DNA of 64,000 bases, from assembly GCF_910592395.1 (NCBI RefSeq), contig NC_088312.1, positions 2,869,858 to 2,933,857 on the forward strand, written 5' to 3'. Shown here piece after piece: positions 56,127-58,642 of this stretch (position 1 is its first letter; every line of letters begins with the position of its first letter). A program made the translations under genes and the position numbers. The notes under the pieces were generated by a model. It was not told where the DNA came from. It ran no database searches and saw nothing but the letters and a program-made list of their open reading frames with translations. The DNA comes from Lineus longissimus (taxonomy: Eukaryota).

Positions 56127-56218
56127 TTAACCAGGGGGCCAGTCCATTTGTCGGCCACCAAGAACATGGACGTGCAAATGAAACACAGCTTGCAATGCAT
56201 CTGGACCATTGTTGATCA
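56127..56218 (-). CDS. HINT1: HINT duplicated terminal exon a ([30 protein letters not shown]). Alternative 3' exon or remnant of a second copy.
   Basis: tctttcag|TG acceptor. Same 92-nt length and phase as exon 4b, an intact histidine triad and its own TAA stop. Lies 0.8 kb downstream of 4b on the same strand. Confidence 0.5.
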
Positions 56219-56943
56219 CTGAAAGAATTGTAAACTTTTGTGAATATCATTTGTCTGCGAGGGGAATGGCACAAAAAACCTTTAACCAGGCTGAAAATCT
56301 GTCCAAGAATGACCAATGCTTACATGCAATGAAAAAAACACCAAGGGGATGAAAAATGTTGGTCGTACCCCAGCACCAGGGAGCGTCTGTGCTAAGTTGA
56401 TGACACACCCTCTTTTTCAAGGCCTCAAACTTTATACTATTGTCATTTTGATAGTGCACCTGACAGTTTTGTGTCTAATTGTATACATGATGCTCACAGT
56501 TGTGCAAATGACCAAGGCCTCTCCAATACGATATCATAATCGTAATTCACAACTTCTGTTTACACATACATCTAATCAAATTCTGATGCATTACACTTGT
56601 GTCTCATTATCCCTCAGGCATACGCTGTAAATGTTAAAATATTGACTATTTGAGCATTAGTCCAGGTGTTTCATGTCAATTTGAAAGAGAAGCTATATGG
56701 CTACACTATTTCATTGTGTTATGATGGCAGGCCTATACCAGCAAGCAACACCATATGCAAATGCAGTTGTTGTTATGATTTGGAACAACAGCATCATTCA
56801 GAATTTCAAAATACTGGTATACTTTCAATTTCACATCGATCAAACTTTTTCACAGAAGTACAGAGCCTTAATATCAAATTTCCCATTGTTTGGAGTTGTT
56901 TTACACAACAGATGTGTAAAAATGTTATGGATCCTGATTTTTT

Positions 56944-57035
56944 TTATCCAGGGGGCCACGTCAACTGTCTACCACCAAGAACATGAAGGTGAAGATGAGG
57001 GACAGACTGAGCACCATCCGGACCATCATTAATCA
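56944..57035 (-). CDS. HINT1: HINT terminal exon b ([30 protein letters not shown]). Carries the histidine triad HxHxH.
   Basis: ttttcag|TG acceptor and TAA stop. Matches HINT1 [29 protein letters not shown]. Confidence 0.75.
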
Positions 57036-57240
57036 CTGAAAATAGCAAGCAGAAAAAATATGATAAAATGCAAAATGCACATCCCTACAAGCAAGTCAAC
57101 CAATCTTGCCAAGACACCAAAAATGGATAACAAGTTTTTAAACAGTACCTCAAACGCCTATTCCATAAAAGCAAAAGAAATCAACATCCCCTTTCCTAAA
57201 AATCACACAAAGCAAGACAAACGCATCCACCGATTCTTAC

Positions 57241-57313
57241 CTATTCTGAAGCCGTTCTTTGCCCCTTTTTCAGCAGCTAGCTTTTTGGCAATGTATAAGA
57301 GATGTCCCAATAC
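57241..57313 (-). CDS. HINT1: HINT exon 3 (VLGHLLYIAKKLAAEKGAKNGFRI + 1 nt)
   Basis: ttttcag|GTA acceptor and G|gtaaga donor. Matches HINT1 [26 protein letters not shown]. Confidence 0.7.
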
Positions 57314-57551
57314 CTGAAAACAGAAGACTCATTGCATCAGTACTTGCATCATGATAAGGTAAGGTGGTACAATTATTGCCCCATTACAATTACAGCCTTT
57401 GAGCACATTGGTAGCCTTAAACTGGCAATTATTCATCTCTGTCACTCGTCATTGATTGATCAAAAATACTGCCCGATGATCCTTCACTGGCATGACTTAG
57501 TGTTTGCCACCAGTAACTCAGTATTACTTGTGCCATGCCTAGAATACCTAC

Positions 57552-57656
57552 ATTAGTATCTTCTTGTTCAGCATGGCTGACTCCAGGAATTGGTTTAATT
57601 GGTATCACCAGGAAGTGAATAGGAGCTTGTGGGTTGAGATCTAAGAAGGCCATACA
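57552..57656 (-). CDS. HINT1: HINT exon 2b ([35 protein letters not shown]), 105 nt, phase 0/0
   Basis: ctttttttggcttgtag|TGT acceptor and AAT|gtaggt donor. Close match to HINT1 [35 protein letters not shown]. Confidence 0.75.
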
Positions 57657-58161
57657 CTACAAGCCAAAAAAAGCATAGAAAATTCTAACACCCAGATAAG
57701 AGGCAAACCACAAAACTGTAGAATGAAGAGAAGCAATCATAAAGCCTATTCCTCGTTAAAGGAACAAGCTTTGTTTGGAGAAAAACCAATGTCCCAAGAA
57801 TTTCACAACAATATCAGCATCAGGCTGAACTATTATCAGTATACAGATCTGTTATTGCCAACATTTGAGGGAGTAGTTTTCAGACTTTCAGACTATACCA
57901 GTTTCAGGTGTAGTTTCATCTAAGATCATACTGTCTTGGGCCTACTAGCTGGAATTGAACTTCCAAGATACTGGGATTGCTATTACTATTAGAAGAGAAT
58001 GATTATTCTGGGACCCAATTAATGATAAATCTTCTTGCCTCAATGCTGTGAAATTCTTGGGGACATTTTCTCCCAAAAGACATCACCTAGACAAAAATAT
58101 AGGAAGAGAGCCTCCTAGTGTCACGAGCCACACCATGAACTGATCAAACATTTCTTCTTAC

Positions 58162-58266
58162 TGGTTCATCTTCGGGTGTGGCCTCAACAAGACTTGGGAT
58201 TGGTTTCTTTGGTACGACCAAGAAAGCTATAGGAGCAACAGGGTGCAAACCATAGAAGGCTATCAC
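58162..58266 (-). CDS. HINT1: HINT exon 2a (VIAFYGLHPVAPIAFLVVPKKPIPSLVEATPEDEP). Divergent paralogous copy of exon 2, 105 nt, phase 0/0.
   Basis: tttcag|GTG acceptor and CCA|gtaaga donor. Same length and phase as exon 2b, with ~40% amino-acid identity to it and to HINT1 [21 protein letters not shown]. Confidence 0.55.
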
Positions 58267-58480
58267 CTGAAAATGTTATTGATACAATGAAGGAATTGCG
58301 CTGAAAAGACCTGAAATTAAGTGCTTTGTAGCTACTCCTTACATTTACTGGAAGACTCGAAGATAATGAAGGATTTGTTTATGAAAATGTGTTTTAAGAT
58401 ATTCAACTTTACTTTCTTATGTTATCAAAAATGACAACACGACGCAAGTAAATTCTGAAACCAAATGATAATTTTCTCAC

Positions 58481-58642
58481 TTTGTCATCCTCATAGATGA
58501 TATTCGCTGGGATCTCTCGGTTGATGATCTTTGTGAAGACGGTCTCAGCTGGCTTTCCCTCCTTCTGATACTTTTCTTGTGCTTCTTTTGCGGCCTTGAC
58601 CTCATCATGGTCACCCTTATTGTGGGACCCTTCACTCATCAT
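58481..58642 (-). CDS. HINT1: HINT (histidine triad nucleotide-binding protein) exon 1, MMSEGSHNKGDHDEVKAAKEAQEKYQKEGKPAETVFTKIINREIPANIIYEDDK
   Basis: ATG at 58642 (minus strand) and AAA|gtgaga donor. TVFTKIINREIPANIIYEDD corresponds to the HINT1 [20 protein letters not shown]. Confidence 0.75.

Follow-up and report, generated by a model that had tools for sequence, protein, structure and literature searches.

Pairs of mutually exclusive exons that arose by tandem exon duplication are a well-described class (PMC9013439, PMC9741552), and the 3′ variable regions of Drosophila pip and PGRP-LC are tandemly duplicated alternative terminal exons (PMC9013439). Tandem exon substitution, a familiar means of tuning a protein, has not been reported for HINT enzymes, which consist of one small domain and are strongly conserved: the literature searched held no tandem-duplicated-exon event in a HINT gene, a full-text search gave no substantive link between the histidine triad and mutually exclusive exons, and a survey of human tandem-exon substitutions leaves HINT genes unmentioned. 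Here, we analyze a HINT gene of the heteronemertean ribbon worm Lineus longissimus (bootlace worm), located on the minus strand of a 64,000-nucleotide stretch (NCBI RefSeq assembly GCF_910592395.1, contig NC_088312.1, positions 2,869,858 to 2,933,857 of the forward strand; hereafter the window, in whose numbering positions are given). Two of its exons, exon 2 (copies 2a and 2b) and the terminal coding exon (copies 4b and 4a), are each present twice, and very probably the gene is a HINT2 gene with two old single-exon tandem duplications that are spliced alternatively into four proteins. Tandem exon duplication is already well known, and the locus adds interpretation rather than a new phenomenon.

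As in the mutually exclusive exon class, 2a and 2b are adjacent, homologous, equal in length and phase, equipped with their own splice sites and old; the worm isoforms likewise differ by the homologous segment alone, with substitutions that mostly preserve the fold. Unlike in that class, exclusivity in the worm is seen in gene models only, and competing RNA structure, steric block, U2/U12 incompatibility and a safeguard through nonsense-mediated decay (NMD) were not identified at the locus. One worm copy (2a) has also lost residues of the active-site pocket and is in this respect less conservative than typical events of the class. The two terminal exons resemble those of pip and PGRP-LC in that they are homologous last exons with their own stop codons, chosen from one upstream donor. 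They differ in that there are two copies only, in that regulatory RNA pairing was not found and in that the sole canonical AATAAA lies after the distal copy, so that the proximal 4b may share it or use a non-canonical signal; if 4b does share the downstream poly(A) site, the choice may come down to two 3′ splice sites of a single long terminal exon. Compared with human and other vertebrate HINT2 and HINT1, the worm gene likewise encodes an N-terminal extension like the HINT2 presequence and adds terminal exon 4a as well as exon 2a, from which Asp43 and His51 are missing.

Seven L. longissimus RefSeq isoforms of the gene (XP_064628923 to XP_064628929) were read from the two top clusters of a homologue search with the 2b+4b product. 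The window translation of the four exon combinations matched four of these residue for residue: X1 (2b with 4b), X2 (2a with 4b), X3 (2b with 4a) and X4 (2a with 4a). The alternative use of the exon-2 paralogues and the two alternative catalytic C-termini, which an earlier note on this DNA had proposed from the sequence, are thus present as gene models. All seven isoforms carry exactly one of 2a and 2b, and none has both or neither. RefSeq isoforms marked "X" come from Gnomon, which models genes on the basis of aligned transcripts and RNA-seq data. Since the alternative exons are already in these models, what is added here is the orthology of the gene, the age of the duplications, the constraint on the copies and the identity of the changed residues.

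The coordinates that the earlier note had assigned to 2a, 2b, 4a and 4b proved exact on the minus strand, and so did the equal lengths and phases within each pair (105 nt and 0/0 for exon 2; 92 nt and a common entry phase for exon 4). Canonical AG acceptors were present on all four exons and GT donors on 2a and 2b. Both terminal exons encode an HxHxH motif (HLHLHVL in 4b, HLHVHVL in 4a) followed by a separate stop codon, with peptides that match those claimed. The "exon 1" of the same note, 58481..58642, needed correction: it begins at an internal Met, and the exon itself starts at 58648 or 58645 and is preceded by a first coding exon and an optional cassette exon (see the table). The RefSeq proteins are up to 49 residues longer at the N-terminus than the 143-amino acid product drawn from the internal Met, and the 143-amino acid products had no exact match in the protein collection because the real proteins begin 49 residues earlier. 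A predicted diagnostic peptide for the HINT isoforms is VIAFYGLHPVAPIAFLVVPK.

Coordinates of the HINT gene features and of the neighbouring gene in the 64-kb window, listed in the direction of HINT transcription.
Feature	Position	Strand	Details
First coding exon of DENND5-like DENN-domain gene	60672..60758	+	head-to-head, about 750 bp from HINT start codon
First coding exon	59830..59922	-	ATG at 59922; encodes MSVYVRVFQRSSQLWVTGRSKIKAFPLFTAQ; donor GTAATT
Optional cassette exon	59362..59409	-	48 nt; encodes hydrophobic LCLIILFILSLVGCIN; flanks ttttcag/ and /gtaagt; 100% tblastn match
Shared exon upstream of 2a/2b	58481..58648	-	begins at 58648 (+Gln) or 58645; donor GTGAGA
Alternative exon 2a	58162..58266	-	105 nt, phase 0/0; encodes VIAFYGLHPVAPIAFLVVPKKPIPSLVEATPEDEP; divergent copy; RefSeq X2, X4
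Intronic hairpin between 2a and 2b	57793..58061	-	arms 58061-58044 and 57810-57793, 18 nt, 94% complementary
Alternative exon 2b	57552..57656	-	105 nt, phase 0/0; 35 residues; canonical copy; RefSeq X1, X3, X5-X7
Shared exon 3	57241..57313	-	73 nt; encodes VLGHLLYIAKKLAAEKGAKNGFRI(V), central helix; helix 53-72 in both structure models
Proximal terminal coding exon 4b	56944..57035	-	92 nt including stop; (V) + 29 residues; canonical GAQS; RefSeq X1, X2, X5-X7
Distal terminal coding exon 4a	56127..56218	-	92 nt including stop; (V) + 29 residues; RefSeq X3, X4
Canonical AATAAA poly(A) signal	55964..55969	-	the only one on the minus strand within 57000-55000; about 160 nt beyond the 4a stop

To place the gene within the family, all four exon combinations were scored against the HIT domain (PF01230), which gave 87.3-99.9 bits against a cutoff of 21.5; the score depended on exon 2, being 99-100 bits with 2b and about 12 bits lower (87-88 bits) with 2a. 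The closest solved structure was human HINT2 (E = 2.4e-46), with HINT1 next, and the top non-self matches of the 2b+4b product were fish proteins named HINT2 and HINT2-like mollusc proteins, at 60-64% identity. Orthologous loci from Argopecten irradians, Gigantopelta aegis and Branchiostoma belcheri were compared over the gene and 6 kb on each side. The intron positions (EDDK|C, |LLGHL and R|V.IN, where the bar marks the intron) were the same in all three. In both the scallop and Gigantopelta, a neighbouring gene with uDENN, DENN, RUN and PLAT domains stands head-to-head with HINT, and a matching first exon was found in the window; this conserved HINT/DENN microsynteny suggests a shared bidirectional promoter. 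Because the intron positions and the head-to-head DENN neighbour are shared with molluscs, the sequence evidence identifies the gene as the L. longissimus orthologue of mitochondrial-type HINT (HINT2), a histidine-triad nucleoside phosphoramidase.

The doubled exons are where the worm departs from these relatives. The earlier note had suggested looking for the same exon arrangement in orthologous loci, and it was not there: every exon is single-copy in the scallop, the snail and the amphioxus (3/3 loci). The matches of protein searches with the 2b+4b or the 2a+4a product included no nemertean homologue outside L. longissimus, and the search with the 2a+4a product found no a-type exons in other organisms. 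With that product as query, the best non-Lineus matches were cyanobacterial HIT proteins (59-65% identity) and not animal HINT2, a likeness that probably gave rise to the RefSeq names "HIT-like protein slr1234 / Synpcc7942_1390". These matches would be due to shared residues, typical of the family, that 2a has in its variable tail (PKKPIP.L.EATPED) and not to horizontal transfer. Judging from their absence in the molluscs and amphioxus examined, the duplications would have arisen on the nemertean side or been lost elsewhere.

For each pair of exons, paralogy and age were assessed by alignment. Exons 2a and 2b are 57% identical in nucleotides and share 18 of 35 amino acids (51%); 4a and 4b are 72% identical in nucleotides and agree at 22 of 30 translated positions including the stop (21 of 29 residues). 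The exon-exon alignments stand far above those of shuffled sequences (z = 11.3 for 2a/2b and 19.4 for 4a/4b), and the copies find one another by tblastn with E values of about 2e-6 and about 2e-11, respectively. A repeat scan over 4a/4b returned a unit of 98 nt, 73% identical, in which the likeness ends within 6 nt of the exon borders. The flanks of the paralogous exons align near-randomly (z between -1.1 and 2.5), and dS (synonymous divergence) between paralogues is 1.1-1.4. Since likeness stops at the exon borders, the flanks are random and dS exceeds 1, the duplications are old. The same figures leave practically no room for explaining the doubled exons by an error of assembly, in which haplotypes were collapsed or expanded, or by a likeness due to chance. 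Although false duplications can occur in long-read assemblies, nothing specific points to one here; copies that are 57 and 72% identical with unrelated flanks are not haplotigs, and chance is contradicted by z values of 11-19 above shuffles and by the HIT-family motifs that both copies encode.

The order of the exons, 2a, 2b, 3, 4b, 4a, fits two independent single-exon tandem duplications and not a whole-gene duplication. That the locus might instead be what remains of a duplication of the whole gene or of a block of several exons, in which two HINT genes were partly deleted and merged, is brought to mind by the doubling of two different exons of one gene within 2.5 kb and by a weak exon-3-like peptide between 4b and 4a, which the earlier note had placed at about 56860-56910 and had taken as a sign that exon 3 and exon 4 were duplicated as a block. 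When scored, this supposed remnant lay at the chance mean in both nucleotides (Smith-Waterman score of 17 against a null of 17.4 ± 7.8) and protein (22 against 21.8 ± 3.1), which leaves the block duplication without support. The interleaved exon order is also unlike that of a block or gene duplication. By tblastn, the shared exons occur once in the 64 kb and no other HINT-like piece was detected beyond the assigned exons, and RefSeq unites all of the pieces in one gene. A merged pair of genes is therefore considered highly improbable.

Under two independent exon duplications, the history of the gene would be as follows. In the lineage of the worm, the 105-nt exon for the strands of the ribose/nucleobase pocket would have been duplicated to give 2a and 2b, and a separate duplication of the last coding exon, with the HxHxH catalytic motif and the C-terminus, would have given 4b and 4a. 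The shared exon ending at 58481 would join 2a or 2b, either of which would then join exon 3, and exon 3 would be spliced to the nearer acceptor, that of 4b, or to that of 4a, which lies 817 nt beyond it. The four proteins would have the N-terminal half-pocket and central helix in common and differ in one or both of the swapped segments, with 4a a constrained, family-typical variant and 2a a copy that keeps the fold-determining residues and replaces the ribose-binding Asp43 and the conserved His51.

The residues affected by each swap were identified with HINT1 numbering. In HINT crystal structures, Asp43 hydrogen-bonds the 2′,3′-hydroxyls of the ribose, the nucleophile is His112, and Ser107 touches the leaving-group side (bioRxiv 10.1101/2024.07.15.603568). 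In the 2b+4b isoform no family-conserved residue is lost, and Asp43, His51, Ser107 and His110/112/114 are all in place. Exon 2a retains Phe41, Pro46, Ala48-Pro49, Phe52-Leu-Val and the PKKPIP turn and changes Cys38 to Val, Asp43 to Gly, Gln47 to Val and His51 to Ala; the losses of Asp43 and His51 are unique to 2a among all aligned sequences. From these replacements, isoforms with 2a should handle nucleotides in an altered or weakened fashion. Exon 4a changes two conserved columns (Gly104 to Ala and Ser107 to Ala) and one variable column (Ala105 to Leu). As Ala or Thr at 107 is found in several genuine members of the family (a snail HINT1-like protein and cyanobacterial HITs, for example), 4a lies within family variation.

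AlphaFold (AF2) models of the 2b4b and 2a4a proteins were built from the same 14-sequence alignment, which is dominated by canonical homologues. The mean predicted local distance difference test score (pLDDT) was 87.6 for 2b4b and 84.7 for 2a4a, and the predicted template modeling score (pTM) was 0.82 and 0.80, respectively. Both models show the same main secondary-structure elements, with an extra 4-residue helix (87-90) in 2b4b, and the 2a4a model superposes on HINT1 and HINT2 crystal structures with template modeling (TM) scores of 0.91-0.92. The models weakly suggest that 2a and 4a contain no feature in obvious conflict with the HINT fold.

Selection on the "a" copies was examined through the ratio of nonsynonymous to synonymous divergence (dN/dS), as the earlier note had suggested, and through the retention of conserved residues, defined as positions at least 90% conserved among 28 animal homologues. 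The dN/dS value of 0.16 for 4a/4b is a clear sign of purifying selection; the value of 0.34-0.49 for 2a/2b would also allow relaxed constraint on 2a. Conserved positions are kept at 18/18 in 2b, 21/21 in 4b, 19/21 in 4a and 13/18 in 2a. A test based on random placement of substitutions looks highly significant and was discounted; because synonymous change on the constrained copy inflates its score, it was replaced by branch-wise simulations, in which one neutral branch was started from the b sequence. Under this simulation, the retention seen in 4a has P <= 0.003 once d >= 0.25. For 2a, the P value falls from 0.04 at d = 0.35 to 0.002 at d = 0.55, a distance equal to half of the estimated dS, and the 13/18 would be reproduced if the neutral phase had been brief and recent (d about 0.15). 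By these measures, 4a is clearly under constraint, and 2a was constrained for most of its history, with a recent relaxation possible.

Several observations weigh against alternative splicing into four proteins from two old exon pairs. The residues changed in 2a (Asp43, His51, Gln47 and Cys38) are invariant among the 28 animal homologues, and a 2a/2b dN/dS of up to 0.49 is the value expected of one neutral and one constrained copy. A collection of 5.8 billion proteins contained no independent transcript-derived protein with 2a or 4a, and the outgroup loci comprise two molluscs and one amphioxus and no second nemertean. RefSeq X-models are predictions, and the four combinations may have been chained together from short-read introns. 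The first two of these points, together with the HIT score lowered by about 12 bits with 2a, the 2a retention that a recent neutral phase reproduces, the lack of an a-type exon in any other species by protein search and the weaker polypyrimidine tracts of the "a" exons (pyrimidine fraction of 0.65 in 2a and 0.61 in 4a, against 0.78 in 2b and 0.83 in 4b), would also be expected if one or both "a" exons, especially 2a, were decaying pseudo-exons spliced at a low, non-functional level, with the RefSeq isoforms as splicing noise. We consider this unlikely. Both "a" exons have an open frame, their exact length and intact consensus splice sites despite randomized flanks. Neutrality of 4a is rejected at any plausible distance, in line with its dN/dS and its 19 of 21 conserved residues, and its change of Ser107 to Ala is natural in other family members. 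The changes in 2a leave all of the hydrophobic and proline fold residues in place (AF..P.AP..FLV.PKKPIP), and the 2a4a isoform is still confidently predicted to adopt the HINT fold. Loss of the nearly universal Asp43 and His51 in an otherwise constrained-looking 2a is the one unusual feature of the locus and could mark a splice-selected change of substrate handling or the start of decay.

Splicing itself contributes further points on the unfavourable side, as no mechanism that would enforce exclusivity was found when intron size, splice-site type, NMD and RNA pairing were examined. The intron between 2a and 2b measures 505 nt, and all splice sites are of the U2-type GT-AG kind. Because 105 nt is divisible by three, double inclusion or skipping of exon 2 would stay in frame, beyond the reach of NMD. 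Energies of docking/selector pairing between the introns, calculated with RNAduplex, fell within the range of shuffled sequences (fraction at least as good 0.05-0.65). The stretch between 4b and 4a is devoid of a canonical poly(A) signal and contains only the variant hexamers AATGAA and TATAAA. The region between 4b and 4a also holds two sites resembling 5′ splice sites (56497 and 56323), and the simplest reading of the 3′ end is that two acceptors 817 nt apart would compete, with one poly(A) site common to both. With its stronger polypyrimidine tracts and fully canonical residues, the 2b+4b combination is probably the default enzyme.

The intron between 2a and 2b contains an inverted repeat that was considered as a splicing regulator. 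In both minimum free energy (MFE) and centroid folds its stem reaches about 30 nt and loops out about 233 nt, and the hairpin is unique in the window. The hairpin is real and local, yet the fold z-score of the intron is only -1.2 and the 64 kb contain 43 inverted repeats of a comparable kind; it is not statistically exceptional and is kept as a lead. A weaker third site complementary to it lies at 56293-56310, about 75 nt upstream of exon 4a.

Upstream of the duplicated exons, the gene varies in two further ways. The N-terminus of the RefSeq protein matches the first coding exon at 100% (tblastn), and the extension encoded there, MSVYVRVFQRSSQLWVTGRSKIKAFPLFTAQ, is basic, has no acidic residues and is probably a mitochondrial presequence. 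This extension is itself alternatively spliced: the 48-nt cassette, present in RefSeq X1-X5 and absent from X6 and X7, inserts the 16-residue hydrophobic LCLIILFILSLVGCIN into the presumed presequence, an insert that could alter targeting or membrane anchoring. The shared exon, which encodes (Q)CMMSEGSHNK...IIYEDDK with the nucleobase-pocket segment TVFTKII, has a tandem NAGNAG acceptor (CAG|CAG, in the sequence tgtcagcagTGCATGATG) by which one Gln is added or omitted, and one Gln is the difference between X1 and X5 and between X6 and X7. Together, the cassette and the NAGNAG acceptor account for RefSeq isoforms X5-X7.

Elsewhere in the window, a tandem repeat of about 155 bp forms two arrays (4.5 and 3.1 copies, 90-92% matches) at 53610-54938, about 1.2-2.5 kb downstream of the HINT gene. 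Arrays of this repeat yield spurious repeated open reading frames on both strands (53726-54151 and 55120-55631). A GC-rich palindromic unit of about 30 nt, TGTCCCGGGGCGCTACGTAGCGGCCCGGGACA, occurs in two mutually inverted clusters about 8.4 kb apart (10094-10317 and 18490-18713), and these clusters may form the repeat-bearing ends of a transposable element. Further long inverted repeats were located at 13146-13525, 16758-17130 and 20468-20748.

Should both exon pairs prove to be in genuine use, the worm would obtain as many as four catalytic variants from a single mitochondrial HINT gene, with further ones arising as the variants combine in dimers, and the swap to 2a, which removes the ribose-gripping residue, would offer a natural experiment on the residues that set HINT substrate choice. 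A more specific proposal, which we put forward tentatively and regard as possible but somewhat doubtful, is that 2a is not decaying and that its selection by splicing switches the substrate pocket. Its isoforms, whether or not they also carry 4a, would keep the nucleophilic triad and the fold without Asp43 and His51, and would either act on another substrate or serve as altered or inactive subunits of heterodimers. Should this be true, a single mitochondrial HINT gene would give rise to two functionally distinct enzymes, and no tandem-exon-substitution event would have been described in the HIT superfamily before this one.

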